Source of the DNA: Cyanobacteria bacterium P01_G01_bin.39
GTDB lineage: Bacteria > Cyanobacteriota > Cyanobacteriia > Cyanobacteriales > Xenococcaceae
Assembly (NCBI GenBank): GCA_039180345.1
Contig: JBCDDK010000008.1
Span: 4,643 to 44,642 of the forward strand
Length of the DNA: 40,000 bases
Direction: 5' to 3'
A model generated the notes under the pieces. The model was given only the letters and a program-made list of their open reading frames with translations, ran no database searches and had not been told where the DNA came from. Below are positions 9,347-37,634 of this stretch, one piece after another. Position 1 is the stretch's first letter; each line of letters opens with the position of its first letter. Position numbers and translations under genes: made by a program.

Positions 9347-10567
9347 ATGAAAATTCTTATATCCGCTTATGCTTGCGAACCGAATAGAGGTTCAGAACCA
9401 GGCGTTGGCTGGCATACTGTGTGGGAATTAGCTAAAGATCATCAAGTCTGGGTTCTCACTCGTCCTGATGATGGAAGACCTGCAATTGAAAAGTATCTGA
9501 GGGATAATCCCAATCCCAATCTCAATTTTGTCTACTTTAACCTACCTATATTGGGAAGTTTTTGGCAGTGGGGTTCAATAGCTTTTGTCTTGCACTATTA
9601 TTTATGGCAGATTCAAGCCTATTTTGTTGCTCGCCTTTTACATCAAAAAATAGACTTTGATGTTGCCCATCATGTTACTTTTGTCCGTTATTCTACCCCT
9701 AGTTTCATTGCACTACTACCTATTCCCTTTGTCTGGGGTCCCGTAGGAGGAGGCGAAACAGCACCCCAACCGTTTTGGCAAGATTTCAGCACGAAAGCAA
9801 AAATTTACGAACTTCTTCGTCTTGCCGCTCATCGAGTGGGAGAATTAGACCCTTTTGTTCACCTAACAGCTAAACGAAGCCGAGTTGTAAAAGCAACTAC
9901 CAAAGATACCGCCGCCAGAATTGCTTTATTAGGAGCAAATAAGATTGAGATCGCTTCTGAGTCCAGCTTATCCCGAGCCGAAATTACGCTGCTCGAACAA
10001 TTGCCTTTACCAGAATCTCAGGCAATCCGCTTCATTAGTATGGGTCGTCTCATTCATTGGAAAGGATTTCACTTAGCTTTAAAAGCCTTTGCTCAAGCAA
10101 AATTAGACTATGCCGAATATTGGCTTTTGGGAGAAGGAGTAGAAAGCCAAAAATTACAGCAGCTAGCGGCTGAATTAGGTATTGCTCATCAAGTCAAGTT
10201 TTTTGGTAGACTACCTCGTCAGGAAACCTTAGCGACTCTGGGACAAACACATATCCTGGTTCATCCTAGCTTACACGATTCTGGAGGCTGGGTCTGTTTG
10301 GAAGCAATGGCAGCAGGTCGCCCCGTGATTTGTTTAGATCTCGGTGGTCCAGGAGTCCAAGTTACGGCAGAAACTGGAATCAAAGTTCCAGCTCACTATC
10401 CAGAGCAGGTGGTAGAAGATTTGTCTGAGGCAATGAGGCGTTTAGCTAGTGATTCCACTCTACGTCTTAAACTCGGTCACAAAGGTCAAAAAACCGTAAA
10501 GGAAATTTATAACTGGCATGCCAAAGTGCAAAAAACAGAACAATTGTATGGACAAATAGCCCAATGA
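9347..10567 (+). CDS. glycosyltransferase family 4
   Basis: The N-terminus MKILISAYACEPNRGSEPGVGW is typical of a GT4 subfamily. SMGRLIHWKGFHLAL and HDSGGWVCLEAMAAGRPVICLDLGG are also present. Confidence 0.85.
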   Translation: MKILISAYACEPNRGSEPGVGWHTVWELAKDHQVWVLTRPDDGRPAIEKYLRDNPNPNLNFVYFNLPILGSFWQWGSIAFVLHYYLWQIQAYFVARLLHQKIDFDVAHHVTFVRYSTPSFIALLPIPFVWGPVGGGETAPQPFWQDFSTKAKIYELLRLAAHRVGELDPFVHLTAKRSRVVKATTKDTAARIALLGANKIEIASESSLSRAEITLLEQLPLPESQAIRFISMGRLIHWKGFHLALKAFAQAKLDYAEYWLLGEGVESQKLQQLAAELGIAHQVKFFGRLPRQETLATLGQTHILVHPSLHDSGGWVCLEAMAAGRPVICLDLGGPGVQVTAETGIKVPAHYPEQVVEDLSEAMRRLASDSTLRLKLGHKGQKTVKEIYNWHAKVQKTEQLYGQIAQ

Positions 10568-22085: not shown

Positions 22086-25073
22086 TTAATTGCGCTCATT
22101 AACTTGAGCTTTGTCTAAGCAAATTTTTAATTTTTCTGCCAGAATTGGTGATTTCATAATAGAGGTATGGTTTCCAGGAACTTCATAGATTTCCATTCCT
22201 CCTGCTGCCAAATCTCCCCAACCAAGTTTGGGATCATTGTAAAAACCAGGAGGGCGATCGCTAGCCCGAAATAAAATAACTCGATCAGAGTAGACTGATG
22301 GCATGTAATTTCGCTTCGCCATGATATTAGCTTCTACAACTTGTTGTAGTGCTTCTGGTATCTCACCTGTGTCATTAATGATATCAGTAGTACTTTGGTC
22401 ACTGCCAGACAAGCCCCATAAAAATACATTAGTGTAAAAACCGCTAGCAAAATGTTTTAAAAGAAAGATTGCTAGAGAGTTAATCCGCTTTTCTAGAGAA
22501 CTAAGATTGTGAGAGACACTCTTGTATTGAGCAAATCTGATTTGAAAGATACTTTGCATCTTATGTTGGTTAATTTCTCGGTCTTCGTCAAAAACCTTTT
22601 GAACAATGCCCAAGCTCTCTAAAATCTTAGTCGAAGTCTGTTTGAGTCCCAATTGTCTCAAATTAGAGACAAGTTTTTGGGATAAAAGGCTCGGTTTACG
22701 CAGAGAATTAAATATTACGTACTTGAGGACAGATAATAATCTCGGTAGGGGTGGCAATATTTTATAGTAGTTTGGACCACTGCTATCAAACAAAGCCAGC
22801 AAAGCTACTTTCTGTCCTCGAGTCTGGAGGAGTTGGGCTATTTCCCAGGCTGTGGCGCCTCCAGTGGATAAACCAGCTAAAAAATAAGGACCATTAGGCT
22901 GGAGGCTACGTATTTGGGCAAGATAATAATCTGCCATATCCTTAACATCATTAAAAGGGGCGTATTTCCCATCTAAACCTCTTGGTTGTAAACCATAAAC
23001 TGGTTGGTCTACACCCAGAGCAAATGCTAAATCACGATAAACAAGAAGGTTACCACCTCCTGCATGGATATAAAATAGCGGAGGTTTACTGCCATTTGGT
23101 TGAATCGGCACTAAACTTTCCCAAGGAGATAGCCATTTTTCAGAGCGGATAATTTGGGCTATTTCCGCCACAGTCCCTGACTGAAAGAGTGTAGCTAGAG
23201 GTAGGTTTTTACCAAACTGCTTTTCTATTTGAGCAAATAGAGATACAGCCTGTAGGGAGTTTCCCCCCAAGTCAAAGAAATTATCTTTGACTCCAATAGG
23301 TTGAATACCTAGAACTTCTGACCAAATTTCGGTTAAGTGCGATTCCAATTGATCTTGGGGAACAACATAAGTACTAGATGGTTCTTGCCTAGTGTTATCT
23401 GGAGCAGGAAGAGCGAGGCGGTTGACTTTTCCATTGGGCAACAAGGGTAGGGTGTCTAGGATCACAAAAGCAGCAGGCATCATGTAATCGGGAAGTCTCT
23501 GCTTAAGGAAGTGCCGTAATTGGGCAACTGTAAGGTTCGATTCTGGGTTGGCAACTACATAGGCTACTAAGCGCTTTTGTCCTGGTTTGTCTTCGCGAAT
23601 CAAAACTACTGCCCCTTGGACAAGGTTATGCTGTCGCAGTTGATTTTCTATATCTCCTAATTCGACTCGAATGCCTCTGATTTTCACCAAATCGTCTTTA
23701 CGACCTCTAAGTTGAAAATTCCCATCATTCAACAGTCGCGCTACGTCTCCTGTCTTGTAAATCAAATCATGGGGATCGTCACTAAACGGGTTGGAAACAA
23801 ACACCTCTTTCGTCAATTCGGGCTGATTGTAATATCCAAGAGTCTTATAGGGAGTCCTAATATAAAGCTCACCAAAAACTCCGCGAGGACATAGATTTCC
23901 ATACCGATCCAAAATTACCGCCCTTGCCCCTTTAATTGGCTTACCAATGGGAATAAAGCCTCGCTCTAGATCAGATTCTTTTACTTGATGATAAAACTTC
24001 ACCATCGTAGTTTCGGTGGCACCATACAGATTGACCAGTTTGATCCGATTACTGTAGACTTTCCAAAAGTTTTCAACATCAGATACAGGCAAGGTTTCGC
24101 CAGACATCAAAATATAGTTGAGAGAATTCAACTTTTCCCCGTCTAGCTCTCTGTTAGTAAAAGTCGCAAACAAAGATGGTACACAATGAATCAAATTAAT
24201 CTGATTACTATCAATCCAATCAATTAATAGTTTTGTCTCCATTCTTGCTGTCAGTTCAGGAGAAATACAAATGGTTCCTCCTGAACAAAGAGGTACAAAA
24301 ATATCTCTTAAAAAGGCATCAAATGTAGGGCTAGTAAACTGGCTAAAACGCCATCCAGCAGTAATATTAAAAGTTTCTATTTCCCATTTTATAAAGTGAG
24401 AAACGCCTTTGAGATTTCCGACAATTCCCTTTGGTTTCCCTGTAGAACCAGATGTATAATAAATGTACGAACTCTGCTCTAGATCAACTGAGACTGATGG
24501 CTTTTCGGAACTAAATTTTGAGAGAGATTTACTAATGGGAATTAGATTTGCTTCAAACTGATTTGATTGCCAAGTCTCTTCAATATTGATAATCTTACTA
24601 TTCTGTTGATGATCACGGTATATTTGAGCTATTAGACTGCTGAATTTAGATTGAGTAATAAAGCAGTCTGGAGAAACATCATCAACAATTTGACACAACC
24701 GTTCTTCAGGAAAACTAGCATCGAGAGGGACAAAGACGCAACCAGCTTTCCATATTGCGATCAGCGAAATTATCATTTCGCTTCTATCATCGAGAATTAC
24801 CGCAATTTTTGACCCCTTAGCTATTTGGTTGCCAATTAAGCAATTTGCTAATCTATTAGTTCTATCATTAAGCTGGCTGTAGGATATTTGTTGATTATTC
24901 CACTCAATTGCTGTTTGTTCTTTGAAAGAATAGCAGGTTTGATTCAATATGTTTAATATTCCATCATCGTTGATGGCAGATATGTCAATTTGCCTTTCAG
25001 TTTTTATTGCTGAATCTAAGGAAAATTGGCTTTGAATCAGGGAAGTATTATGTTGCGAACGTTCATTACTCAT
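22086..25073 (-). CDS. NRPS termination module: A-PCP-TE, with no C or E domain
   Basis: A domain, about nt 23409-24941: A1 SYSQLN, A2 WKAGCVFVPLD, A3 YIYYTSGSTGKPKG, A4 FDAF, A5 NLYGATETT, A7 YKTGD, A8 GRKDDLVKIRGIRVELGDIE, A10 NGKVNR. PCP, about nt 23139-23351: FFDLGGNSLQAV. TE, about nt 22119-23096: GLSTGG (Ser736), LFDSS (Asp763), PGNHTS (His969). Confidence 0.95.
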   Translation of the reverse strand: MSNERSQHNTSLIQSQFSLDSAIKTERQIDISAINDDGILNILNQTCYSFKEQTAIEWNNQQISYSQLNDRTNRLANCLIGNQIAKGSKIAVILDDRSEMIISLIAIWKAGCVFVPLDASFPEERLCQIVDDVSPDCFITQSKFSSLIAQIYRDHQQNSKIINIEETWQSNQFEANLIPISKSLSKFSSEKPSVSVDLEQSSYIYYTSGSTGKPKGIVGNLKGVSHFIKWEIETFNITAGWRFSQFTSPTFDAFLRDIFVPLCSGGTICISPELTARMETKLLIDWIDSNQINLIHCVPSLFATFTNRELDGEKLNSLNYILMSGETLPVSDVENFWKVYSNRIKLVNLYGATETTMVKFYHQVKESDLERGFIPIGKPIKGARAVILDRYGNLCPRGVFGELYIRTPYKTLGYYNQPELTKEVFVSNPFSDDPHDLIYKTGDVARLLNDGNFQLRGRKDDLVKIRGIRVELGDIENQLRQHNLVQGAVVLIREDKPGQKRLVAYVVANPESNLTVAQLRHFLKQRLPDYMMPAAFVILDTLPLLPNGKVNRLALPAPDNTRQEPSSTYVVPQDQLESHLTEIWSEVLGIQPIGVKDNFFDLGGNSLQAVSLFAQIEKQFGKNLPLATLFQSGTVAEIAQIIRSEKWLSPWESLVPIQPNGSKPPLFYIHAGGGNLLVYRDLAFALGVDQPVYGLQPRGLDGKYAPFNDVKDMADYYLAQIRSLQPNGPYFLAGLSTGGATAWEIAQLLQTRGQKVALLALFDSSGPNYYKILPPLPRLLSVLKYVIFNSLRKPSLLSQKLVSNLRQLGLKQTSTKILESLGIVQKVFDEDREINQHKMQSIFQIRFAQYKSVSHNLSSLEKRINSLAIFLLKHFASGFYTNVFLWGLSGSDQSTTDIINDTGEIPEALQQVVEANIMAKRNYMPSVYSDRVILFRASDRPPGFYNDPKLGWGDLAAGGMEIYEVPGNHTSIMKSPILAEKLKICLDKAQVNERN

Positions 25074-25776
25074 TAACCAACCTCTGAAAATCTCTTGCTA
25101 TTGTTAATAAAGGATCTATAAAGTTGTAATTTAGATTATTTTGTTCTGATTTAATTAAATACTTGGTTATTAAGTGAAATTCAGTACAGCCAGCGATCAT
25201 TCCCTCAACTTGGTATTTCTGAGTCAAGGTATCTAGCAACTTTAAATAATCGAGAGTAGAATTGTCAAAGTTTTTAATTTTTATTTGATAAATTAACTGA
25301 TGAATTAAATTCTGATCCTCTTCATCTGGTAGTTCTATATATTGACTGGCCAAACTCCATAACTGGTGATTTTGGAAGATTCCCCCTTGGCATGTTCCCT
25401 TGGTGCATAACAACAGATATCGTTTTTGATTAGTTAACACTTCTTTAAAGATTACATCTATTAAAGATATAACTTTTTTTCTTAAATGAATTGGTATTTT
25501 GGGCATAAAATAGTGTATCGTTATGCAAGAAATTGCTATTTTGCTAACGCCTAGCTGGACAAGATGAGATAAAGCTTTTATTAGATGCTCGAGCAAGATC
25601 TCATCATTACCGCTAGTGACTGCTTTTGTTCGGTCGGGAAATGTTGGATCGGAAAACAGAATACATGCTGGTAAATCTTGCTCAAGATCAGAAAAGTTAA
25701 ATTCGTAAATTGTTTGCAGGAACTCAGTGGATGCTAAAGGTCCCATTCCACCTAAAATACCTAATAATTTCGTCAT
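25066..25776 (-). CDS. aspartate/glutamate racemase family protein (McyF-like role inferred)
   Basis: LGILGGMGPLAST at the N-terminus. Two candidate catalytic cysteines lie in AISCITIH and IAGCTEF. Size is 236 aa. Its stop overlaps the NRPS start by 8 nt (ATGAGTAA). Confidence 0.8.
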   Translation of the reverse strand: MTKLLGILGGMGPLASTEFLQTIYEFNFSDLEQDLPACILFSDPTFPDRTKAVTSGNDEILLEHLIKALSHLVQLGVSKIAISCITIHYFMPKIPIHLRKKVISLIDVIFKEVLTNQKRYLLLCTKGTCQGGIFQNHQLWSLASQYIELPDEEDQNLIHQLIYQIKIKNFDNSTLDYLKLLDTLTQKYQVEGMIAGCTEFHLITKYLIKSEQNNLNYNFIDPLLTIARDFQRLVNE

Positions 25777-25821
25777 AAATTTATCTATTTTTTTAGTACT
25801 TAAAAATTAGATTTGGATCAT

Positions 25822-27444
25822 TTAGCAAACTTCATTTTTGGCAAAAGCTATTCCATCTAAGGGGTCATTAAAATTACCTATCAATTCTTCTTTATCACTG
25901 CTCGTTAAAAGAGACAAACGCGAGATACATTTTGCTGGATTAGCAACAATATCTGTGATCAAGGTCTGAAAATTTTTGAGCATTCGGGTAATAGTATCAG
26001 ATTCAAAAAGATCGATATTGTAGGTCATACTACCTTGGAGATATTTCCCATTATCTAAAAAGGTTAATATTAAATCGAAATCACCTCCTCGCCGTTCCAA
26101 TGCCATATAGTCAAGAACTATTTCTTTGCGGGCGTTTTCTAATGACTTGTTTTCACTTACGCGAGATTGATCCCAAACCAACATTGCCTGGAACAATGGC
26201 GGTCTGCTGGGGTCGCGTTCTAGTTGCAATTTTTCCACTAGTAAGGGAAATGGGAACTCTTGATGATCTAATGCTTCAAGTAAAGCTTGACGAACTTGAT
26301 GGAGTAATTCTTCAAATGTAGGATCACCTGCTAGATTCACCCTTAGAACAACTGGATTAACAAAATAACCGATGATGTTTTCTAATTTTGGATCTGTTCT
26401 TCCTGACATTGGACACCCAATCAACAGTTCCTCTTGAGAAGTATAACGTAGTAATAGAACTTGAAATGCCGCTAAAACAATGGCATAGGTTGTCGTCCCG
26501 GTTTTTTTCGCCAGCTCTCTGATTTCCCTAGAAACTTCCTGGCTTAAAATACAATGTTGCTTGTCACTGTTGTAAGTTTGCCTAGCTGGTCGAGGTTTAT
26601 CCGTTGGCAAATTTAGTACTGGCAATTCTCCAGATAATTTGTGTCGCCAGTAATCCCAATGCTGATTGATTTCTGTACCAGCAGCCAGCTTTTTTTGCTC
26701 TCGATGCACATAATCTCGATACTGAAAATTTAGTGTGGGTAGAGATATTGCACTGCTTTCTTTCATGCTTTTACAAAGCAGACAAAGCTCATCCATCAGA
26801 ATATCTATAGACCATAAATCCATTGCAATGTGATGACCCACTAGCAATAAAATTTTCTCTCTCTCTACTGAAAAGTCTGTCTCGGAATATCGATTTAATA
26901 GGTGTGCTCTGATAATTTCTCCTTCACCGAGGTTGAAAGGACGGTCTGCATTTTCTGCCAACCAATTATCTAAATAATCTTGAGAAGTATCATCAGTCTC
27001 TGTGACTATAAATTGGGCTTGCCAATCTTGGCAGGTTTGCTGAACGAATTGTCCGTTTTCAGTTTTATAAGCAGTGCGAAGGCTGGGATGGCGCTCAACC
27101 ATTTTATTAAATGCTTGTTCTAAGATTGAAACATCCAAGTCGGGATTAAGTCGCACTGCATACATCATGTTATAAACACTGCTTTCGGGTTCAAGTTGAT
27201 AAAAAAACCATAAAGCTTGTTGTCCTAATGACAAGGGATAAGGTTTGCTTGAGTTGGCATCTTGGCGTAATACATCCAAGATTTCTGATTTGTATTGCTT
27301 AATTTGGCTAAAGACTTGAGGAGTCAAAGTCTCTTTTGGACCCCGATAACGCAGCTTGTCTTCTTCCGCCCACAATTCTATTCCTTGGGTTCGAAGATCT
27401 TGAATAAAATCAACTATATTTGGGTCATTAAATGTATTAACCAT
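25822..27444 (-). CDS. stand-alone NRPS condensation domain with an N-terminal TubC-type docking domain
   Basis: aa 8-58, IVDFIQDLRTQGIELWAEEDKLRYRGPKETLTPQVFSQIKQYKSEILDVL, matches the TubC_N/beta-hairpin docking pattern. C1 is PLSLGQQALWF. C3 is HHIAMDLWS (aa 204-212, nt 26809-26835). There is no A or PCP domain in this protein. Confidence 0.9.
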   Translation of the reverse strand: MVNTFNDPNIVDFIQDLRTQGIELWAEEDKLRYRGPKETLTPQVFSQIKQYKSEILDVLRQDANSSKPYPLSLGQQALWFFYQLEPESSVYNMMYAVRLNPDLDVSILEQAFNKMVERHPSLRTAYKTENGQFVQQTCQDWQAQFIVTETDDTSQDYLDNWLAENADRPFNLGEGEIIRAHLLNRYSETDFSVEREKILLLVGHHIAMDLWSIDILMDELCLLCKSMKESSAISLPTLNFQYRDYVHREQKKLAAGTEINQHWDYWRHKLSGELPVLNLPTDKPRPARQTYNSDKQHCILSQEVSREIRELAKKTGTTTYAIVLAAFQVLLLRYTSQEELLIGCPMSGRTDPKLENIIGYFVNPVVLRVNLAGDPTFEELLHQVRQALLEALDHQEFPFPLLVEKLQLERDPSRPPLFQAMLVWDQSRVSENKSLENARKEIVLDYMALERRGGDFDLILTFLDNGKYLQGSMTYNIDLFESDTITRMLKNFQTLITDIVANPAKCISRLSLLTSSDKEELIGNFNDPLDGIAFAKNEVC

Positions 27445-27546
27445 TGATTAACATCTCTTGATTATTGGTTCGGATGAATTTATACATTCGATTGATTCTG
27501 GGAAAATTATCTGAGTCTAACTCTTATAATTACTAATTGTCTTCTA

Positions 27547-30500
27547 CTATAATTCTCCTTCCAACCAATTCTGATCATCTTGCAAAGATAAATTTGACTC
27601 AACTGTTGGTGAAACAGAATTCTCGGTCAGTTGTTCGCCACAAAGCTTTGCCAAACTAGCAACTGTAATCTCATTCATAAATTGACTCATTAGTAAATTG
27701 ACTCCTAAATCGGTTTTGAATAAGTTCCTCAACTGAACAGCCATTAAGGAGTCTAATCCCATGGTAGTCAAGGGCTGCTGGATATCCAGCTGTTTAGCAT
27801 TAATTCCCAGAGCTTGAGAAACCCTCTCCTGAACATAGATAACCAGGAGTGATTCACGCTCGCTTGAGTTAGCCTGTTTGATATCCTTAACTGATACTTG
27901 TTTATCTTGTATGGGTTGCTCCTGACCAATTAATTCTTCAAAAAATGGCGGAATATTACCTGATGAAAACTTCTGGCTAAACTTTGACCAGTCAATTGGG
28001 ACTACTCCTACTTGGGCAGAAACATTGAACAAGAGCCGCTCTAATGCTTGTAGTGCCAACTCGGGAACTATCGGTTCCATACCCTGAATTTTGATCTGAT
28101 TATCAGCTGCCATCCCGATGCTTGCCCACCCCCCCCAGTTGATAGTTAATCCAGGAAGTCCTTGAGTTTGACGGTAATGCGTCAAGGTATCGAGAAAAGT
28201 ATTGGCAGCGACATAATTGGTTTGACCTAGAGAACCTAGTAAAGATGCTGTCGAAGAGAACATTACAAAAAATTCTAATGATTTTTCTTTGGTCAAGCTA
28301 TGTAAATTCCAAGCTCCCTGCACTTTTGGAGCCATGACCCGAGCAAATCTTGACCAGTCAAGTTGTTGCAAAACCCCGTCATCTAAAATTCCCGCAGCGT
28401 GAATAATACCTCCCAAGGGTGAAACAGAGCTATCTACGTCCCTTATTACTTTAGCAATTTGTTCTTCTTGAGTAACATCTGCTTGAGCTACTACTACCTG
28501 CACCCCCGCATTTTCTAGCTCGGTTATTTTTTCCTTGGTGTTTTTACTAGGTTCACTACGCCCTAGTAAAACTAAATGCTTTGCTCCTCGCTGCGCCATC
28601 CAACCAGCGATGAATAAACCTAAACCTTTTAAACCACCAGTAATTAAATAGCTTTTTGATTCATGGAATAGATTTTTAGACTTAACCTTAGTTTTTTCTA
28701 GGTCTTTCCTAACTATTCTTGGCACATAACGAGTATTGTTACGAAAAGCGACTCGATCCTCTGAATCGTTTGACCAAATTTCTGCCAACAATACTGGGGC
28801 AAGATCATTCTTCAATTCTGGGTCTAGGTCTACCGTGACGCAATTTAGTTCAGGGTGTTCTAAAGAAATTACCTTTCCCATCCCCCATAAGGGAGCTTGG
28901 GATAAACCAGGAAGATTGCCTTCTCTGACTACTGCTTGGGCGCCTTTGGTCACTAAGCAGAGAGAACAAGAGTCGGATAATCCACTATTAACTAAATATT
29001 GAACGAGATTTAAAGTACTGCGACAACTTAATACGGAAGCATCTTTTAAATCTTCTACTGTCATGACTTGGGCATCTACAGTATCTAAACTCCACAGATG
29101 AACTATGCCGATAGAAGAAGTGTTGTCTAGATCCAAAGCTTTCCCTAGTTGCTCTAAATCCTCAGCAGAATTTGGCTCAATTGCAAACTCTGAATCGGAT
29201 ATCTGCTGGTATTGCTGACCTGAAAAAACCAACCGAGAATCTTTTCCCTCAGCTTTAAGCAAAGTCGCTAAATTGCATCCAATTCCTTTATTATCAGCTA
29301 AAATCAGCCAAGAATCGGGTTGGACTTGACTCCCTTGAGCTGACATGGGTTTGGCTGACCACTGAACTTCGTAAAACCAATCTTCAATACTGCTGGCTTT
29401 CTGGACTTCTAGTTCAGTTTTGCCTAAAGTTTCTAAGAGCTTAGGGAGTAACTGCAACTCTTGTGGGTCAAATTCTCCTGTTTTTGCTAATTTATCAACT
29501 AAGCTGCTTACCCCTCCTGGGGATAGTTGTAATAAATTATCTTTTGCCTCGACCCAGTAACGCTTTCTCTCAAAAGGATAGGTGGGTAGGGAAAGACGAT
29601 TTCGCTTTTCCTGTTGATAAAATGCCGACCAGTCTACTTCTACTCCTGCTTGCCATAACTGTCCTAAAGTATTGAGTATAAATGCTTGATCGGAAGTGTC
29701 TTCTTTGGGATGACGCAGGGAAGATAAAACAACTTGCTCATCTGCTTGCTTGAGTGCCAAGGACTTAAGCATCTTTCCTGGACCCACTTCTAAGAGAATA
29801 CAATCTTTTTGAGACAGTAGTTCTTTTGCTCCCGCAGCAAAACGAACCTCCGAGCGCAGATGTTTTGCCCAATAACTGGGATTGGTTGCTGACTCAGGAG
29901 TAACCCAAGTACCACTCACGTTGGAAATGTAGGGGATTTGAGGTGGATTTAGAGCAACTTGACTAACTCGTTCGGTAAAGGTTGCCAAAATCGGTTCCAT
30001 CATCGAGGAATGGAAGGCATGGGAAGTATGCAAGGGACGACAATCGATTTCTTTGTTAGTTAACTGTTGCTCAAATGTATCTATTGCTTCATGAGTTCCT
30101 GATACTACGCAACTACCTGGGGCGTTGAGTACTGCTAGATCTAGATTGTCATTGAGTAAGGTTTTAACTTCAGCTTCGGGTAAGAATACTGACAACATCG
30201 ACCCGCTAGGAAGTTTTTGCATCAACTGACCACGTTCAGCAACTAGCATCAAGGCATCTTCTAAGGAAAATACTCCAGCGATGCAGGCAGCTACATATTC
30301 ACCAATACTATGACCAATGGCTGCTTTTGGCTTAATGCCCCATGCCATCCAGAGACGAGCCGTGGCATATTCAATGATAAATAAAGCGGGTTGAGTAAAG
30401 CGAGTTTCGGTTAACTGTTGGGTTGCTGACTCGATCTTGTCCGTTTCTGGATAGAGTATGTCCCGCAAATCTAAGCCTAATCTGGGTTTTAGTAGTTCAC

Positions 30501-32187
30501 AACAGTAATCGACCTGTTCTCGGAAGATGGGTTCTTCCTGATATAATTCTTGGCCCATGTTGACATACTGCGCTCCCTGTCCAGAAAACATAAAGGCAAC
30601 TGTCCGTTTTTTAGATTCTGTCGGTTTGAGAAAGTCTGTATTTTGGAGAGCAGTAACAGCTTCAGCCCCATTTTGACAAACTACCACTTGCCGATATTTA
30701 AAGCCTCGACGACCTACTTGTAGAGTGTACGCTACGTCTCCTAAGTTTAAATCGACATGTTGTTCTAGGTGCTGTGCTAGATTTTGGGCAGCAGTTACTA
30801 AAGCAGATTCGCTTTTTGCCGAAAGCAGTAGTAATTGCCAAGGTCTAGAGGGGCTTGATGGTTCTCTAACGGGGGCTTCTTCTAAAATCACATGAGCATT
30901 AGTTCCCCCAATACCAAAGGAACTAACACCAGCCCTACGGGGTACGCCGTTAGTATGCCAAGGTTGCAGCTCAGTATTGACATAAAAGGGGCTGCTCGTA
31001 AAATTTATCTGGGGATTGGGTTGCTGGTAATTAATGCTGGGGGGAATTTCTTGATGTTTCAGAGCCAACACCGTCTTAATTAAGCTGATCGCACCAGAAG
31101 CACGGTTGAGATGACCCATGTTACCCTTGACCGAACCGATCGCACAATATCTTGTCTTGTCAGTACTGCTGCGGAAAACCTTAGTCAAAGCAGCAATTTC
31201 AATGGGATCTCCCATCGTCGTCCCTGTACCGTGGTTTTCGATATAGCTAATGGTCTCAGGGTCGATTTCGGCGATTTCTTGAGCTTCAGCGATCGCATCT
31301 GCCTGACCGTCTACACTGGGGGCGGTGTAGCCTACTTTTAAGGAACCATCATTGTTAATCGCCGAACCCTTAATTACTGCTAGAATTGGATCGCGATCGG
31401 CGATCGCATCTTCTAAGCGTTTCAGCACTACAATACCAACACCACTACCAAAAATTGTGCCTTTGGCATCTGCATCAAAGGGACGACAATGACCATCTGG
31501 AGATGCCACACTATCTTCTTGATGGAAATATCCTGCTGTTTGAGGCAGGGAAATCGTAGCGCCCCCCGCTAATGCCATGTCACATTCGCGATCAAGTAAT
31601 CCTTGACAAGCTATATGCACCGAAACTAAGGAAGTGGAACAGGCAGTGTTAATACATACGGAAGGGCCAGTTAAATTTAGCTTATAAGAAATCCGAGTCG
31701 GCACAAAGTCCTTATCATTGCCAATTTCAATTTGCAAATCCCCAGTTGATTTGATGAAATTGGGGTTGGTTAGGAGGTTTTGATGCAAATAAGTACTCAG
31801 ACTCGATCCTACATAGACTCCAATTCTGCCATCGTAGTTTTCTGAGTCCTGTCCCGCACTCTCTAATGCGCCCCAGGCACATTCTAATAACAAGCGATGT
31901 TGGGGATCTGTTGCTTGGGCTTCCCGAGGAGAGATGCCAAAAAAATCAGCATCAAATAAATCGACATCTGATAGTATCGCCCCTGCCTTAACATAATTGG
32001 GGTCTGCTACAGTTTCACTAGGTACGCCAGCCGCAATTAATTCTTCATCGCTAAAGAAGGTGATCGATTCTACGCCGTTGCGCAGATTGTGCCAAAATTC
32101 TGCAACATTATTAGCACCAGGGAAACGACCATCCATGCCGATAATCGCAATCCCTTCTTCATTTTGTGAATCTAGATAATCACTCAT
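27547..32187 (-). CDS. type I PKS module: KS-AT-KR-ACP
   Basis: KS, nt ~30880-32154: DGRFPGA, TACSTS (Cys183), HGTGT, GNMGH. AT, nt ~29653-30600: GHSIGE (Ser627) and HAFH, the malonyl-type motif. KR, nt ~28123-29370: TGGLKGLG, LDD at 1268-1270 (B-type), Tyr1325. ACP, nt ~27643-27855: GLDSL (Ser1480). There is no DH motif between AT and KR. The acidic C-terminal tail is DDQNWLEGEL. Confidence 0.95.
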   Translation of the reverse strand: MSDYLDSQNEEGIAIIGMDGRFPGANNVAEFWHNLRNGVESITFFSDEELIAAGVPSETVADPNYVKAGAILSDVDLFDADFFGISPREAQATDPQHRLLLECAWGALESAGQDSENYDGRIGVYVGSSLSTYLHQNLLTNPNFIKSTGDLQIEIGNDKDFVPTRISYKLNLTGPSVCINTACSTSLVSVHIACQGLLDRECDMALAGGATISLPQTAGYFHQEDSVASPDGHCRPFDADAKGTIFGSGVGIVVLKRLEDAIADRDPILAVIKGSAINNDGSLKVGYTAPSVDGQADAIAEAQEIAEIDPETISYIENHGTGTTMGDPIEIAALTKVFRSSTDKTRYCAIGSVKGNMGHLNRASGAISLIKTVLALKHQEIPPSINYQQPNPQINFTSSPFYVNTELQPWHTNGVPRRAGVSSFGIGGTNAHVILEEAPVREPSSPSRPWQLLLLSAKSESALVTAAQNLAQHLEQHVDLNLGDVAYTLQVGRRGFKYRQVVVCQNGAEAVTALQNTDFLKPTESKKRTVAFMFSGQGAQYVNMGQELYQEEPIFREQVDYCCELLKPRLGLDLRDILYPETDKIESATQQLTETRFTQPALFIIEYATARLWMAWGIKPKAAIGHSIGEYVAACIAGVFSLEDALMLVAERGQLMQKLPSGSMLSVFLPEAEVKTLLNDNLDLAVLNAPGSCVVSGTHEAIDTFEQQLTNKEIDCRPLHTSHAFHSSMMEPILATFTERVSQVALNPPQIPYISNVSGTWVTPESATNPSYWAKHLRSEVRFAAGAKELLSQKDCILLEVGPGKMLKSLALKQADEQVVLSSLRHPKEDTSDQAFILNTLGQLWQAGVEVDWSAFYQQEKRNRLSLPTYPFERKRYWVEAKDNLLQLSPGGVSSLVDKLAKTGEFDPQELQLLPKLLETLGKTELEVQKASSIEDWFYEVQWSAKPMSAQGSQVQPDSWLILADNKGIGCNLATLLKAEGKDSRLVFSGQQYQQISDSEFAIEPNSAEDLEQLGKALDLDNTSSIGIVHLWSLDTVDAQVMTVEDLKDASVLSCRSTLNLVQYLVNSGLSDSCSLCLVTKGAQAVVREGNLPGLSQAPLWGMGKVISLEHPELNCVTVDLDPELKNDLAPVLLAEIWSNDSEDRVAFRNNTRYVPRIVRKDLEKTKVKSKNLFHESKSYLITGGLKGLGLFIAGWMAQRGAKHLVLLGRSEPSKNTKEKITELENAGVQVVVAQADVTQEEQIAKVIRDVDSSVSPLGGIIHAAGILDDGVLQQLDWSRFARVMAPKVQGAWNLHSLTKEKSLEFFVMFSSTASLLGSLGQTNYVAANTFLDTLTHYRQTQGLPGLTINWGGWASIGMAADNQIKIQGMEPIVPELALQALERLLFNVSAQVGVVPIDWSKFSQKFSSGNIPPFFEELIGQEQPIQDKQVSVKDIKQANSSERESLLVIYVQERVSQALGINAKQLDIQQPLTTMGLDSLMAVQLRNLFKTDLGVNLLMSQFMNEITVASLAKLCGEQLTENSVSPTVESNLSLQDDQNWLEGEL

Positions 32188-35100
32188 TAGACTTTCCCTC
32201 CTCTGCGTTGTCGACGTTGTTTTCTAGCATCTTTTTTGCTGCGCACTCGGTCTGTAACATCTTGAAAACCTGGAGCTGATGATGATTTTTGCTCTCCCTG
32301 TGACTGAGTTAAATATTTTGCCAGAGCATCAATAGTAGGATATTGATATAAATCCACTAGGGAAATCTGAGGATAATTCTCTTGTAATTTGCTCAATATT
32401 TGAACCATTAATAAGGATGTACCCCCCAACTCGAAGAAGTTATCCTGGATACCTATTTGCTCTATGGTCAATACTTCCTTCCAGATTGTCACCAGTGATT
32501 CTTCTACCTGGTTCCCCGCAGCAACAAACTGAGATGCTAATTCCAGAGGACGAACTCGACGTTTATTAGACTCAATCAATTGTAGAATCTGCTTTGGCTC
32601 ATATAGCTCTGTAGCAATGCGAGTCATGGTTTGAATCTGTTTTTGACCTCGACTTACTGTTGCCGTTGGCTTTTGAACTCCTGGGGTAGAATCAACTGAC
32701 TTTGCAGTTTCTGGATTATAAGTAAGCTCGGCAGCTATTGCGCTAGGTAGTTTAAAGAGCCAAGATGATTCTATTTTTTCTTTAACGACACCAGCTAGAT
32801 TTTCTAGAAAATTTAGTGCGGGTTGATTTTTGGGTGTGGAAGCATATGCCAGATCTATGTACTCAAGCCCCCGATCTTGGGCTATGGTACCAAGGCTAGC
32901 TAACATCTGATGTTCGATGCCTTTACCTAAAGCGCGGCAGCTAAGGAGAAAAGTATCAACTTTTAGTACCTTGTCTGATACCCCGAATAACATTGCCCCT
33001 ACTAGACCATAATCACCAAAGCGATCGCTAACTTTAACAGTAAGACATTCTATTCCTGAATCGAGCAATTGTTGAATTTCAGTTTCACTCCGTCTAATGG
33101 TAGTAAAATTGAACTGGTTTGTCCGCTGGGTCAATTGTGCCACTCTAGCTAATTGCTGCACTGACATCGGGGCAATATTAACCTGTAGGTTTAAACCAGC
33201 CAAGAAATCGCTAAAGGTTATTGTCTCCTGACGGAAGCTTTCTCGTTTGACATTCTGCTGATAAAGAGCGGTTCTTTGTTTATCTTCTGCTGTATTTTGT
33301 AGGTGATCGAATGCCCAGATATGCTCTAGAAAGTTGGGAATTTTATCTATCTGTTCAGGAAGTTGTAAAGTTAGAACTTGAGGACAGTTGGCTTGCACTT
33401 CGGCACATTCGAGGGGATTATCATCAATAAAGATAAAGCTGTCTAACCCTAAGTTTAGTTCCTGTGCCAGAGATTTAATATTCTCTGATTTTGCTTGCCA
33501 GTTAATACGCCACTGAACTAGATGTCGTCGTTGTAGAGGCATTTGATGGTAGTCAAATACTTGCCAAACATCTGCCTCATTATTCTTACTACACAAACAT
33601 AAGAGCATTCCTGCCTCAGATTGTGCCACCATGAATTCCTGTAGCTTTTTATAAGCTGGATCTATGGTTACTCCCTCTGCGCCATCTTCCCCACAGATTC
33701 CGTTCCATAAAGTGCGATCGCAATCTAAGACAATCACTTTGTAAGGAAGGGTTTTAAGAACGTTTATTTTACGAGCGATCACTGTTCCCAAAGCGGTATA
33801 GTATTCTGGGGTATAGGGAACACTACCTGATTTATCTCCACGAGGATCGTAGTAATCTAGGACAGGATATTTGGTAGTTAATTCTGAAACTGGTAATAAA
33901 TGTATGCCGTTAACCTGATCTAGATAGGAACCTAAGAGATTTTCCATCTCTCCATAAAAACTGCTACGTTCTGGATCTGAATTTACCTCCGAGGAAGCAG
34001 GACACAGACAAACTAGATAGGGGGTTGCAGTAGATTCGGCAGAGGCGATTAATGCTTGCCCTAAATCTTTGATATTTTCTTTTAGGCTAGCTTTATTTTC
34101 CTTAGAGATTGACGACAATACTTGAGCTGAAGTGCCAGGACGGGTTGCATAAATGTTATAAAGACCCGAACCTTGAAGCAAAGTTTCTTCTTCTACAATC
34201 AGTTCAAACCCCTTGTCTTGCAACAGTTGTTTGACTTGTTTAATAATGCTTCCCTCTTGATCGTGAACTTCCACAACCATTTGTTGAATTATCGACCAGT
34301 GATGGTCTTTAATCCCCTGTAGGACTGGCAATTCACTTTTTTCCGCATCTAGCTTGAGTAAATCGATACGTTCAATGTTGTGTTCTTCTATTACGCTCGA
34401 AAGAGTCCGCAATTGAGCTTGGAAGCTTTCTACTTCTAACCTACCTGGCATAAACTCATCAGCAAGTCTTTCTAATTCTGCTCCTTCGCCAGCATTGACC
34501 TGCTGTAACATATTCAGGATTACGGCGCGGATAGCTTGCTCGTCGTCTTCTTTGTCGGCATGAAACCCAGAGAACACCGAAGAGTTAGGATAGAAAGTAA
34601 AGGTTTCTGATTTATCTGACCCTGATAGTCCGCAGTTAAATAAGTTAGCATTCTGACAATACAAGGCTGCATTGCTCTTTAACTTCTCAAAAGCATGGGG
34701 GGCAGGTTCAAAGGAGTAGATAGTTGCGTTAGGACACTGTTGCTGAATAAATAAGGTAAACAAGCCAATATTTGCCCCAATATCCACCACACAAGCATCG
34801 TCATTCAAGACTATATTATGTCTGGCGTAAACCCGATCAACGAATAATTCCTGATAAAGATATTCGGTTTCATATTGATTGAGGTGGGCTACCTCCAGAC
34901 CTTGAGGTAAATTATGAGTCGACAAGTTACCTAAAATTGCTTGCTTTTGTTCAGTGTCAACTATGGGTTTGAGTTGCTTCTTATCCTGTGACCAATCTTC
35001 TAGTCTGAGTAAAATTACATTAACCCCATCTCGATTCTGAGACATCGTACTACTAGGGTTGAGTAACTCTTGAAATATTTGATTATAAGGGGCAAATTCA

Positions 35101-36074
35101 ATTTCGCTCTTAAGATTTAGCTCCTCCATCCAGAAGCTTAAAGAATCCTCAATCGGTTCAGCCGTAAAAGATGCTGCGATCACAATTTTTTGTGTTATTT
35201 GCAGCGAATTTAGCAGTGCCTCTTGACTGGCACGCTCAATTGCTACTCCCTTCAACTCTACTAGGCAATTACCTGCCTCATCCAATAGGTATAAGTCAGC
35301 CAGTAAAATTTTACCTGCCAAATCTGACTCAGGGGAAATTTTGGCATAACTCCAGCAACTAGAGCTAATATCTGGATAGCGATGAACTATCAGCTTCTCT
35401 ATTCCCACTGGTAAATAGGTATCTTCCTTAGTAGCTTCGGGTAAAGCAGCCCACAAAACTTGAAGACAGCTATCTAACAATACTGGATGTAATAAATAGT
35501 TATCTGGTTCAACCAGCTTGCTCAAATCTAACCGAACCTCAGCTAAGGCAGATTTTTCTTGTTGATATAACTTTTCTAATACTTGAAAGCGATCGCCATA
35601 TTGTATATTTCGCTCTCGACAGGTTTGATAAAAATCTGCTATCGATCTGGTTTTAGATTTGGTTAACTCAGCTACTGGATTTACTTGAAAAAACTTTTGC
35701 TGAGATTTGTTAATTATAACTTTTCCTGATGCATATAATGCCTTAGCTGAAGTCTTTCCTTTGTCTTTTCTTAAGCTATAGATATCCCAATCAAATAAAT
35801 TATCTCCCCTTTCCTGAAACTCAATCTGAATAATTTTTACCCCATCTTCTGGCAAAACCAAAGCTTGATGGACAACAAAATCCTCTATACTCAAGTTTTC
35901 CATTTGGAGTAGGGTTTTTCCCTCAGCCAAAACCATTTCTAGATAAGCAGTTGCTGGTATTAAAGCTTGGTTACATACGCGGTGATCAGATAAAAAACCT
36001 GGCGTATCTACTTTAACTTTTATCTGAGATTTAAAAGACATTTCAGCAGAAGAAGACTCTAGTTGTTCAATCAT
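32187..36074 (-). CDS. PKS loading protein: DH - FkbM-family methyltransferase - FkbH-like (HAD-IIIC + acyltransfer) - ACP
   Basis: DH, nt ~35220-36032: H31 in HRVCNQALIP, YGDRF, DSCLQ. MT, nt ~34140-34892: VVDIGANIGLFTL, YSFEPAP, DLLKLDAEKSE. HAD core, nt ~33360-33743: VIVLDCDRTLWNG, FIFIDDNP. Acyltransfer part, nt ~32745-33197: DRFGDYGLVG, LLSCRALGKGIE. ACP, nt ~32310-32522: ELGGTSLL (Ser1220). Its stop shares one base with the next start (TAATG at 32187). Confidence 0.9.
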   Translation of the reverse strand: MIEQLESSSAEMSFKSQIKVKVDTPGFLSDHRVCNQALIPATAYLEMVLAEGKTLLQMENLSIEDFVVHQALVLPEDGVKIIQIEFQERGDNLFDWDIYSLRKDKGKTSAKALYASGKVIINKSQQKFFQVNPVAELTKSKTRSIADFYQTCRERNIQYGDRFQVLEKLYQQEKSALAEVRLDLSKLVEPDNYLLHPVLLDSCLQVLWAALPEATKEDTYLPVGIEKLIVHRYPDISSSCWSYAKISPESDLAGKILLADLYLLDEAGNCLVELKGVAIERASQEALLNSLQITQKIVIAASFTAEPIEDSLSFWMEELNLKSEIEFAPYNQIFQELLNPSSTMSQNRDGVNVILLRLEDWSQDKKQLKPIVDTEQKQAILGNLSTHNLPQGLEVAHLNQYETEYLYQELFVDRVYARHNIVLNDDACVVDIGANIGLFTLFIQQQCPNATIYSFEPAPHAFEKLKSNAALYCQNANLFNCGLSGSDKSETFTFYPNSSVFSGFHADKEDDEQAIRAVILNMLQQVNAGEGAELERLADEFMPGRLEVESFQAQLRTLSSVIEEHNIERIDLLKLDAEKSELPVLQGIKDHHWSIIQQMVVEVHDQEGSIIKQVKQLLQDKGFELIVEEETLLQGSGLYNIYATRPGTSAQVLSSISKENKASLKENIKDLGQALIASAESTATPYLVCLCPASSEVNSDPERSSFYGEMENLLGSYLDQVNGIHLLPVSELTTKYPVLDYYDPRGDKSGSVPYTPEYYTALGTVIARKINVLKTLPYKVIVLDCDRTLWNGICGEDGAEGVTIDPAYKKLQEFMVAQSEAGMLLCLCSKNNEADVWQVFDYHQMPLQRRHLVQWRINWQAKSENIKSLAQELNLGLDSFIFIDDNPLECAEVQANCPQVLTLQLPEQIDKIPNFLEHIWAFDHLQNTAEDKQRTALYQQNVKRESFRQETITFSDFLAGLNLQVNIAPMSVQQLARVAQLTQRTNQFNFTTIRRSETEIQQLLDSGIECLTVKVSDRFGDYGLVGAMLFGVSDKVLKVDTFLLSCRALGKGIEHQMLASLGTIAQDRGLEYIDLAYASTPKNQPALNFLENLAGVVKEKIESSWLFKLPSAIAAELTYNPETAKSVDSTPGVQKPTATVSRGQKQIQTMTRIATELYEPKQILQLIESNKRRVRPLELASQFVAAGNQVEESLVTIWKEVLTIEQIGIQDNFFELGGTSLLMVQILSKLQENYPQISLVDLYQYPTIDALAKYLTQSQGEQKSSSAPGFQDVTDRVRSKKDARKQRRQRRGGKV

Positions 36075-37634
36075 AAATGTTAAGAACTCAAGATTTTTAT
36101 TTCATTCTCTACACCTTATGAAATAAACATACAATAAATAAACTACATGCGTAAAGTATTTTTGTAAATTAATTCCTTCACTCAAAACAGTATTGTCAAT
36201 CTGGCGTTAAGTTTAAGATACGTTTAAAAGTGTGTTGTATTCAACTGTAAGTCTGGCTAGATCTATCCTATGAGCATCTATAATAATCGTAAAACCACGA
36301 AATGTTGATTAATTTACCATTTAGGTGTATTGGTGCAAAAATTAGTTCCTTTAATTGAACGATCTTTCTCATTCCAGACTTCTCTATCTAGTTTGCCTGC
36401 ATGAGGAATGTTGGACGAAACAATAAAATTACCTAAAAATCCCAAGTTTCCGAGTAGTTCCACTTTATTAAATATGAAATAGTTGAGGTGGGGGTTGAGG
36501 ATTCACAAAGGAACTTTTTGGTTTCCCATATATTGAGGAAATACATTTTTCAAGTAGCTATATTTGTTTTGCGTTTTTTTAAGTGGGATACTGATTAATT
36601 TACAGCTGTTATCTATATATATCTATATGTAAATAGCAAATCTATGAATGTTACTAATAGAAATATTTAGAACACTTAAGTCAACCCATTAGTACTGTTT
36701 TGTCAAACTTTTGTTGCGGTATAAATATTGCTTTGAAGATTCTGGAATTATCAGCTAGTGAAAAGCAAAATAAAATTTCCGATGAAGAGGAAGAATATTC
36801 ATTGAAAAATAACATAAATCCTTAGTGTTAAGTAAAACTTGGTCAGAAAAATTTTAAGAATAACGAAGAATAACCTTGACTCTAGATAGCAAAATTATTT
36901 CAAGTATTAAACCTCCTTCAGGAAGCAATATTAAATGTTTCAAAAACAATGCGAATTTGAGTTTGATTATTCCTCCTAACAAATATGTAAATAGATCACA
37001 ATGTCTAATCTATCTATTAATGATGTCTGGGACAACTACATCATACTTCTTTTATAGAGATATAAAACGTTTTGAGGATCTTGGCTTTTTCTTATTTGTT
37101 TATGCTCTTCTATGAGCTGGATATTTTGGCTATTAAATTGTTTATCCTTCAATTCTAAAAATTAAGATTGTTATTCGGCGAGATAAATTTGTAATTTATC
37201 ATGACTATAAATTTTTTCATAGAAAAGAAAATAGTTATACTCAAAATATCAGTAGAGTGACTATAGACCAAAAAATAAGTCACAAAAACAAACAAGTCAC
37301 AGAAGAATATTGTTCTATTGAATCAGGTGTAAAAAGATATAAGTTTGGCGAGCATTTATCCTTACCAGAGAAAAGATGGCTAGTTCAAGAGATCCACAAT
37401 TTCGTCAGAGAAATAGATCCATACAAAACACTGAAGTAACTTTTGTGCAGCATTTACAATAATCATAATTCGAGAAACAATATGAAATCAAAAAACCATA
37501 TTTTAAAGTTTCCATAATTTAGAAGCCTATAAATATTGAAACTAAGAGGGTAATTGACTTTAGGTTTCTAAAGCTTGACTTTTGACTTCGATATGAGGGA
37601 GTGTTGCAATAGGATTCTCTAGTAAACCATAGTC

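Follow-up and report, generated by a model that had tools for sequence, protein, structure and literature searches.

A five-gene FkbH-primed PKS/NRPS operon of a marine cyanobacterium and the small polar N-acyl D-amino acid it may make

Which compound is made by a gene cluster that joins an FkbH-type loading protein to one polyketide synthase (PKS) module and to one nonribosomal peptide synthetase (NRPS) module split over three proteins? The question is raised by an operon in a 40,000-nucleotide stretch of DNA (hereafter the window; contig JBCDDK010000008.1, positions 4,643 to 44,642) that belongs to an uncultured marine cyanobacterium, represented by the metagenome-assembled genome (MAG) 'Cyanobacteria bacterium P01_G01_bin.39'. 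Our analysis favors, at somewhat better than even probability, a functional five-gene cis-AT assembly line with N-(3-hydroxy-4-methoxypent-4-enoyl)-D-Asp (C10H15NO7, monoisotopic mass 261.085 Da) as the predicted product; its D-Glu analogue is possibly made instead. The locus is an orphan hybrid PKS/NRPS cluster of which the product is predictable unusually well. Its five genes are the following:

32187-36074, minus strand: gene 1, loading protein DH-FkbM_MT-FkbH-ACP (1295 aa; NCBI MEM8718417.1; Pfam and NCBIfam)
27547-32187, minus strand: gene 2, PKS module KS-AT-KR-ACP (1546 aa; Pfam and NCBIfam)
25822-27444, minus strand: gene 3, stand-alone TubC_N docking and condensation protein (540 aa; Pfam)
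25066-25776, minus strand: gene 4, McyF-like cofactor-independent amino acid racemase (236 aa; Pfam and NCBIfam)
22086-25073, minus strand: gene 5, A-PCP-TE (995 aa; Pfam; 100% identical to P0121)

The listing of open reading frames (ORFs) in the window showed these five minus-strand ORFs to be uninterrupted and to run in one direction; all five proteins have exact matches in the NCBI records of this MAG. Genes 1 and 2 have one base in common at their junction (TAATG), the start of gene 5 lies over the racemase stop in an 8-nt overlap (ATGAGTAA), and the remaining intergenic gaps are 102 and 45 nt. Pfam and NCBIfam gave the domain order dehydratase (DH), methyltransferase (MT), FkbH and acyl carrier protein (ACP) in gene 1; ketosynthase (KS), acyltransferase (AT), ketoreductase (KR) and ACP in gene 2; docking and condensation (C) domains in gene 3; the racemase; and adenylation (A), peptidyl carrier protein (PCP) and thioesterase (TE) domains in gene 5. 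The ORFs are much too long, and their Pfam E-values (1e-17 to 1e-100) much too low, to have arisen by chance, and the KS/AT/ACP and C/A/PCP/TE motifs place the locus among hybrid modular type I PKS/NRPS systems. All genes, domains and catalytic residues of the operon are intact. A first-pass annotation of this DNA had described five co-directional, tightly packed genes with the same domain string; coordinates and junctions were exactly as it claimed, each domain was recovered in the order given, and every KS, AT, KR, carrier, C and TE residue that it named is present. Its further claim that the operon holds no transporter, regulator, phosphopantetheinyl transferase (PPTase) or MbtH-like ORF was borne out as well, none of them being found in the operon or beside it.

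The following pathway is proposed from domain homology. The FkbH domain would take phosphoglycerate, dephosphorylate it and load glyceryl onto the first carrier, ACP1, and the FkbM domain would methylate the 2-oxygen of the ACP1-bound glyceryl. The N-terminal DH would strip the 3-hydroxyl, which lies beta to the thioester, yielding 2-methoxyacrylyl-ACP1, the methyl enol ether of a pyruvoyl unit; 2-O-methylglyceryl-ACP would fit as a DH substrate because it is a beta-hydroxyacyl thioester. The KS-AT-KR-ACP protein would add one malonate, and its B-type KR would set a D-3-hydroxyl, giving 3-hydroxy-4-methoxypent-4-enoyl on the second carrier, ACP2. The tail of gene 2 would dock on TubC_N at the N-terminus of the stand-alone C protein. 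The McyF-like racemase would supply a D-acidic amino acid, D-Asp most likely, which the A domain would activate directly and load onto the PCP, with Arg239 holding the second carboxylate. Finally, the C domain would form the amide and the TE would hydrolyse the product free.

The first steps depend on gene 1, for which four domains were delimited:

35211-36050, minus strand: DH domain, aa 9-288 (Pfam PS-DH and PKS_DH_N; H31, D201, Q205)
34200-34790, minus strand: FkbM-type O-methyltransferase, aa 429-625 (Pfam and NCBIfam), inside the N-terminal part of the FkbH region
32790-33743, minus strand: FkbH (HAD-IIIC) glyceryl-loading domain, aa 778-1095 (TIGR01686; DxDxT and Cys1046)
32310-32498, minus strand: ACP1, aa 1193-1255 (PP-binding; Ser1220)

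The FkbH domain scored 300.5 bits on TIGR01686 (cutoff 146.65). Its DxDxT motif reads LDCDRT, and D784, D786, T788 and C1046 are invariant among the homologues. An above-cutoff domain with these motifs and an adjoining carrier points to FkbH-type loading, for which the formation of glyceryl-S-ACP from 1,3-bisphosphoglycerate or 3-phosphoglycerate is predicted. The DH domain is probably active, since H31, D201 and Q205 are unchanged in 21 of the 21 aligned homologues; its best solved relatives are the DH domains of CurK, CurF and CurJ. In all homologues the FkbM domain is flanked by AIAATFTAEP...FWM... on the N-terminal side and ...YYDPxGD...PYTP on the C-terminal side (gene 1 aa ~295-400 and ~650-770, respectively), and it looks inserted into the N-terminal FkbH region rather than placed there as a separate tandem domain. 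Methylation at the 2-oxygen is suggested by the DH-less MT-FkbH-carrier loading modules of Nostoc, the MTs of which are 69-70% identical to that of gene 1. Other DH-less FkbM-FkbH-carrier homologues, fused to a sulfotransferase and a C domain, match 74% of gene 1 at 56% identity, and such a loading module has been proposed to yield 2-O-methylglycerate sulfate in suomilide/dysinosin (PMC8609519).

A product-linked precedent for the complete tetradomain was found in Leptolyngbya sp. PCC 7375. There, two discrete AT genes are followed by a megasynthase that opens with DH-FkbM-(FkbH)-ACP-KS and carries ECH-ECH later on (Pfam), and gene 1 is 37% identical to this loading region across residues 20-1122. 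The trans-AT PKS of Leptolyngbya PCC 7375 is the phormidolide-type lept PKS (PMC7930024), and the phormidolide terminus is a (bromo)methoxy-vinyl C3 unit, a bromomethoxydiene (PMC8880653). By analogy, this locus is a precedent for a tetradomain that delivers a 2-methoxy-vinyl C3 starter. Because the same tetradomain opens a phormidolide-type PKS and phormidolide ends in a methoxy-vinyl group, the starter in the window is most likely 2-methoxyacrylyl and not plain glyceryl. The glycerate-derived C3 starter of the first-pass annotation, which had assigned no role to the DH and MT, is consistent with these results.

Full DH-FkbM-FkbH-ACP proteins are abundant: 120 of the 120 matches listed in the protein search scored at least 995 bits. 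A scan with an alignment of gene 1 homologues found at least 536 relatives in species-representative genomes; homologues of gene 1 occur in several hundred species of many phyla. A scan of the genome collection with the C protein alone gave no relatives. The 80 relatives that were retained for mapping with the window's own domains include members of cyanobacteria, Chloroflexota, Bacteroidota, Nitrospirota, Acidobacteriota, Verrucomicrobiota, Betaproteobacteria and Ignavibacteriota, and many of them carry just the FkbH-carrier part. Among these 80 mapped loci, those bearing the DH fall into two cluster types. In type I (for example the window, L001, L002, L003/L078, L004, L009, L034, L089 and L090), gene 1 is followed directly by KS-AT-KR-ACP and then by C-A-PCP modules. 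In type II, an FkbK-like 3-hydroxyacyl-CoA dehydrogenase and an FkbI-like acyl-CoA dehydrogenase, usually together with an AMP-ligase (Pfam), separate gene 1 from the KS gene. The methoxymalonyl-ACP pathway uses the same set of enzymes, and type II looks like the methoxymalonyl-ACP route fused to a conserved DH. Type II loci (L010-L014, L016-L019, L021-L024, L026, L028, L030, L061, L063, L080) were seen in Acidobacteria, Verrucomicrobia, Betaproteobacteria and Ignavibacteriota, the dehydrogenases preceding the KS-AT-KR gene.

A role of gene 1 as a maker of methoxymalonyl extender units was considered and rejected for the window, because a tblastn search with the L021 homologues detected no FkbK or FkbI homologue in the 40 kb. 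Moreover, as an active KS (C183) stands at the head of gene 2, the ACP1-bound unit has to be a starter and gene 1 is the only possible loader.

Gene 2 has the residues expected of one extension cycle: C183, H319 and H359 in the KS; GHSIGE at 625 and HAFH at 723, malonyl-type motifs, in the AT; TGGLKGLG, LDD at 1268 and Y1325 in the KR, which is of B-type; and the carrier serine Ser1480 in ACP2. The AT is integrated, so that gene 2 is not a trans-AT PKS such as the Leptolyngbya system with its two discrete ATs. The AT motifs and the LDD of the KR are consistent with the earlier proposal of one malonate extension that is reduced to a D-3-hydroxyl.

In another order of events, the DH would work in trans on what the gene 2 KR has formed and convert a 2-O-methylglyceryl-primed chain to (E)-5-hydroxy-4-methoxypent-2-enoyl, an isomer of equal mass. 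The KS-AT-KR-ACP protein has no DH of its own, and a DH-type gene 1 is followed by a DH-less KS-AT-KR in every examined locus with downstream sequence, which would suit such a division of labor. However, the DH is covalently joined to ACP1 and not to ACP2, 2-O-methylglyceryl-ACP1 is already a beta-hydroxyacyl thioester, and a tetradomain of this kind starts the phormidolide-type PKS, whose product ends in a methoxy-vinyl group (PMC7930024, PMC8880653). Dehydration in trans is hence considered unlikely, and dehydration on ACP1 is retained in the proposed pathway.

The NRPS part begins with gene 3, which consists of a TubC_N domain (aa 10-61) and a condensation domain (aa 67-521, HHIAMD at 204) and whose C-terminus falls within the C-A linker motif ...LIGNFNDPL.... 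Its nearest relatives are docked C domains from other type I clusters of cyanobacteria (57-69% identity; L001, L089, L090). Gene 4 scored 120 bits on TIGR00035 (Asp/Glu racemase, cutoff 93), and its best solved relative is McyF (1.4e-45), followed by an archaeal Asp racemase (1e-20). Its catalytic cysteines Cys84 (ISC84) and Cys197 (AGC197TE) align with those of McyF. The fold, the two cysteines and McyF as the nearest relative characterize gene 4 as a McyF-type racemase, for which racemisation of L-Asp is predicted. Gene 4 shares 59% identity with the L084 racemase and 43% with the McyF of Microcystis (L101).

In gene 5, the A domain (aa 45-549) has the core motifs A3, A7, A8 and A10, the PCP has Ser606, and the TE has the triad S736/D763/H969. 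Motif anchoring gave the specificity code DARSLSLMVK. The D-Glu-activating A domain of McyE, read in the same register from L101, has DPRSSGVVVK, and Arg239 is common to both. The structure 8hlk of the Protein Data Bank (McyB) had been taken as a reference for the MeAsp code and was dropped, as it represents module 1, which activates Leu. Because Arg239 is common to gene 5 and to a McyE domain that takes a D-acidic residue from a free racemase, an acidic D-amino acid is suggested for the window. This acidic residue, which the first-pass annotation had also proposed, is consistent with the McyF-like racemase; D-Asp is the most likely amino acid, and D-Glu or another acid is also possible. Two side observations concern these codes: DGRSLALMAK, DARSLALMVK and DGKSVTILSK are very common in C-A-PCP proteins of ~1700 aa (P0130-P0190), with Acidobacteria among the hosts, and DPR... 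codes occur as variants within the A family of gene 5.

An acid other than D-Asp (D-Glu, D-cysteate or beta-methyl-Asp) would be in line with these DPR variants and with the Arg239 that gene 5 has in common with the D-Glu domain of McyE, and the racemase scored almost as high on the cysteate racemase (CuyB) model (116 bits) as on the general Asp racemase model. That CuyB score is, however, below the cutoff of its model (190), and McyF, whose gene is named as an aspartate racemase gene (PMC6562525), is the nearest solved relative by a wide margin. A different acid is therefore held to be a possible but clearly less probable outcome than D-Asp.

Amide linkage and TE-catalysed release of the conjugate as a small, polar N-acylated amino acid, as previously proposed, are consistent with HHIAMD in the C domain and with the TE triad. 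The TE has ~100 residues more between Asp763 and His969 than a typical type I TE. Both this insertion and the free beta-hydroxyl of the product would agree with a TE that cyclises through the 3-hydroxyl, giving a cyclic ester or a head-to-tail cyclodimer instead of the hydrolysed acid; in serrawettin W1 (serratamolide) biosynthesis, a single-module C-A-T-TE synthetase cyclises 3-hydroxyacyl-Ser. On the other hand, no sequence feature marks a cyclising TE, and a 46% identical TE ends the aryl-fed cassette of L084, for which the predicted acyl group is not a 3-hydroxyacyl. We regard cyclisation as improbable and keep hydrolysis as the proposed release step.

Genes 3 to 5 have a layout that recurs elsewhere. 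For this analysis, and not after a published family, a split-module cassette 'C, racemase, A' was defined by a protein whose terminal C domain stops inside the C-A linker, then a McyF-like racemase and an A-PCP gene that overlaps or abuts the racemase stop, and by the A code D[AP]R.L[AS]LM[VI]K. This set of features was found in the window, L084, L085, L092, L094, L097 and L091, the contig of the last beginning at the racemase with the C end unseen; in L093, the contig stops inside the A domain and the code is not readable. A metagenome scan with the racemase had yielded L091, L092, L093, L094 and L097, in which a 45-58% identical racemase lies between a protein-ending C domain and A-PCP, and a search with the A-PCP-TE protein yielded L084 and L085, which have the same layout and a 59% identical racemase. 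The code D[AP]R[STF]L[AS]LM[VI]K is present in five of the five independent cassette loci in which it is readable. Identity to gene 5 is 48-59% for the A domains of the cassettes and 31-37% for unrelated A domains. The upstream C proteins of the cassette loci all terminate within the C-A linker motif, and the A gene begins in overlap with the end of the racemase gene or directly adjoining it. The C, racemase and A core of the window thus belong to a portable cassette.

The setting of the cassette varies. In L094 it lies behind three NRPS modules, and in L092 and L097 the cassette module is internal (A-PCP-C). Upstream of it in L084 and L085 are an FkbO/Hyg5-type chorismatase, an aryl-acid ligase, a luciferase-like oxygenase and a free ACP, which predicts a hydroxybenzoyl-type D-amino acid conjugate as a putative product. 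L084 (2972-12802, GCA_964405435.1) and L085 also have a PPTase gene alongside the cassette and the chorismatase set. In L086 (Iningainema tapete), the place of the racemase is taken by an ORF of 117 aa without a Pfam match (9655-10008). It is preceded by a C domain at the C-terminus of its protein and followed by an A-PCP-TE protein 60% identical to gene 5, with whose start it shares 8 nt, just as the racemase of the window does; it may be a racemase that has decayed or been replaced. L101 was rejected as a cassette locus, since its apparent arrangement of C, racemase and A is that of Microcystis mcyE-mcyF-mcyG, and it was kept as a positive control.

Comparison with the sister MAG J06642_3 (L171) pointed to an exchange of amino acid modules. 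The same locus carries there a two-gene fused version of the cluster, consisting of a gene 1 homologue (98% identical) and a 2943-aa fusion KS-AT-KR-ACP-C-A-PCP-TE, followed by the same convergent glycosyltransferase gene of type GT1, the protein of which is 100% identical. The DNA of the window is 95.6% identical to L171 over 32380-27628 and 91.5% over 23495-21068, and no DNA similarity was detectable between window positions 23495 and 27628. The first 82 nucleotides of L171 (1-82) match the window in inverted orientation, probably as an assembly artefact of the contig end. The exchanged part is:

23495-27628, minus strand: swapped segment with the gene 2 docking tail, dock-C, the racemase and the A core to aa ~526 (DNA comparison; L171 4818-7684)

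One breakpoint follows immediately on ACP2 and the other is close to motif A9 in the A domain, and the C-terminal tail of gene 2 (aa about 1520-1546) is missing from the fused sister protein. Within the swapped segment the L171 C domain is 34% identical to gene 3, and its A core, with the code DAITVGAFHK, is 20-45% identical to that of gene 5; in contrast, the PCP and TE of L171 are 74-98% identical to gene 5 (50-residue windows). The racemase and A core of the window are nearest to the cassette loci (57-59%). The window cluster is a chimera that has its starter, PKS and PCP-TE in common with the sister genome, and the difference between the two loci indicates a clean natural module swap. L089 holds a three-gene version (gene 1, KS-AT-KR-ACP and dock-C-A-PCP-TE) with a further, different A code. 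As L171 and L089 carry other amino acid modules, related marine cyanobacteria seem to keep the head group and to exchange the amino acid. The five-gene cluster is thus not unique, having two-gene and three-gene counterparts in related MAGs.

So recent an exchange could also have left a recombinant operon that is silent or non-productive. The C/racemase/A-core segment has no DNA similarity to the sister and is bordered by flanks of 92-96% identity, the GC content of the racemase gene is lower (0.33 versus 0.39-0.43 in its neighbours), and there is no PPTase, MbtH-like gene or exporter nearby. Against this, the five ORFs are uninterrupted with every catalytic motif intact, translational coupling is kept at two junctions, and the overlap of racemase and A genes is seen in other cassette loci. 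There is little likelihood that the operon is silent, and a functional line remains the preferred reading.

The neighborhood of the operon was also inspected. On the left flank (158-22039, plus strand), a ~22-kb exopolysaccharide cluster converges with the operon and ends 46 nt from the stop of gene 5. It comprises a pyruvyl transferase, a sulfotransferase, two S-adenosylmethionine (SAM) methyltransferases, six GT1/GT4-type genes, GT2 and GT8, as well as a pectate-lyase-like protein and a VanZ/lectin-domain protein. This proximity, and the presence of the same GT1 gene beside the sister cluster, could suggest that the acyl-amino acid decorates the exopolysaccharide and is not released free. 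However, related FkbH clusters lie in unrelated neighborhoods (L001, L002, L089), the two clusters are convergent and not co-transcribed, and no linking acyltransferase is present, which makes such a decoration very improbable in comparison with release of the free conjugate. On the other side of the operon lies:

36075-37634, no strand assigned: AT-rich non-coding stretch of 1.56 kb upstream of gene 1, with cysS beyond

This unusually long stretch, presumed to be the promoter region, holds no Rfam family, MbtH-like ORF, notable repeats or convincing small ORF. Scans for promoters and terminators gave no more than chance would predict, and Rfam and tRNA scans gave no matches.

Several points weigh against N-(3-hydroxy-4-methoxypent-4-enoyl)-D-Asp as the product. 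Concerning the starter, the order in which the DH acts and its substrate are inferred only, and the constant pairing of a DH-bearing gene 1 with a DH-less KS-AT-KR module, described above, would also suit a DH that acts after the KR. Concerning the amino acid, the A domain is only 34% identical overall to that of McyE, to our knowledge DARSLSLMVK matches no nameable code of known specificity, A domains of the gene 5 type often have no adjoining racemase (L086, L087), and there is the CuyB score of gene 4. The release mode of the TE is not readable from sequence. Furthermore, in a recent recombinant the C/A and C/PCP contacts may be non-cognate, which could impair function, and no PPTase, MbtH-like gene or exporter lies close by.

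Each part of the line can be compared with a known system. The loading region of bryostatin BryA is DH-KR-FkbH-ACP, and the DH N-terminal to FkbH is proposed to dehydrate the glyceryl starter; there, in a trans-AT system, a KR then reduces the unit to lactyl, whereas in the window an O-methyltransferase would trap the enol. The phormidolide/leptolyngbyalide loading module likewise has DH-FkbM-FkbH-ACP directly before a KS. That system, however, relies on two discrete AT genes (trans-AT) for the synthesis of a long brominated macrolide, whereas the window is cis-AT, with one extension, an NRPS terminus and no halogenase. The methoxymalonyl-ACP pathway (FkbGHIJK) also loads glyceryl on a carrier through FkbH and then O-methylates it, but it needs FkbK/FkbI, which were not found in the window, where the unit must be a starter and not an extender. 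The Mgs loader of suomilide/dysinosin-type aeruginosins likewise has FkbM within FkbH on a carrier, with glycerate loaded and then methylated (PMC8609519); unlike gene 1, it lacks a DH, carries a sulfotransferase and passes its unit straight to a C domain, with no PKS extension in between.

On the NRPS side, microcystin McyF together with McyE/McyB2 likewise combines a free racemase, an Arg239 A domain and direct activation of a D-acid with no epimerization (E) domain. Unlike mcyF, the racemase gene of the window stands inside a split module, between the C and A genes, and is translationally coupled to A. SwrW (serrawettin W1, C-A-T-TE) is a single module that N-acylates one amino acid with a 3-hydroxyacyl thioester and releases the product by its TE. 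Its acyl group comes from fatty-acid synthesis, whereas that of the window would come from a dedicated FkbH/PKS pair, with the module split over three proteins. The first-pass annotation knew of no characterised counterpart, and none was found for the whole cluster in the literature searched or in source annotations (MIBiG not covered); each part, in turn, has a clear relative. The enzymology is canonical and the operon is an ordinary kind of gene cluster.

If the assignment is right, the product would be a very small, very polar acyl-D-amino acid with an acid-labile enol ether. The cluster would point to overlooked chemistry, because a compound of this kind would escape the lipophilic extraction that is standard for cyanobacteria. 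The tetradomain of gene 1 is widespread, and the sole product-linked precedent found for it is the phormidolide-type PKS family. It is tempting, though rather far-fetched, to regard the head group, a beta-hydroxy methyl-enol-ether C6 acid, as a widespread, hitherto undescribed pharmacophore that marine cyanobacteria carry on swappable amino acids, the D-Asp conjugate being one of a natural combinatorial series and having a specific signalling or antimetabolite role; as one possibility, the head group may mimic an enolpyruvyl group. Finally, the exchange of C, racemase and A core between near-identical genomes would offer a natural template for engineering NRPS module swaps, and one that shows a way of introducing a D-amino acid without an E domain.

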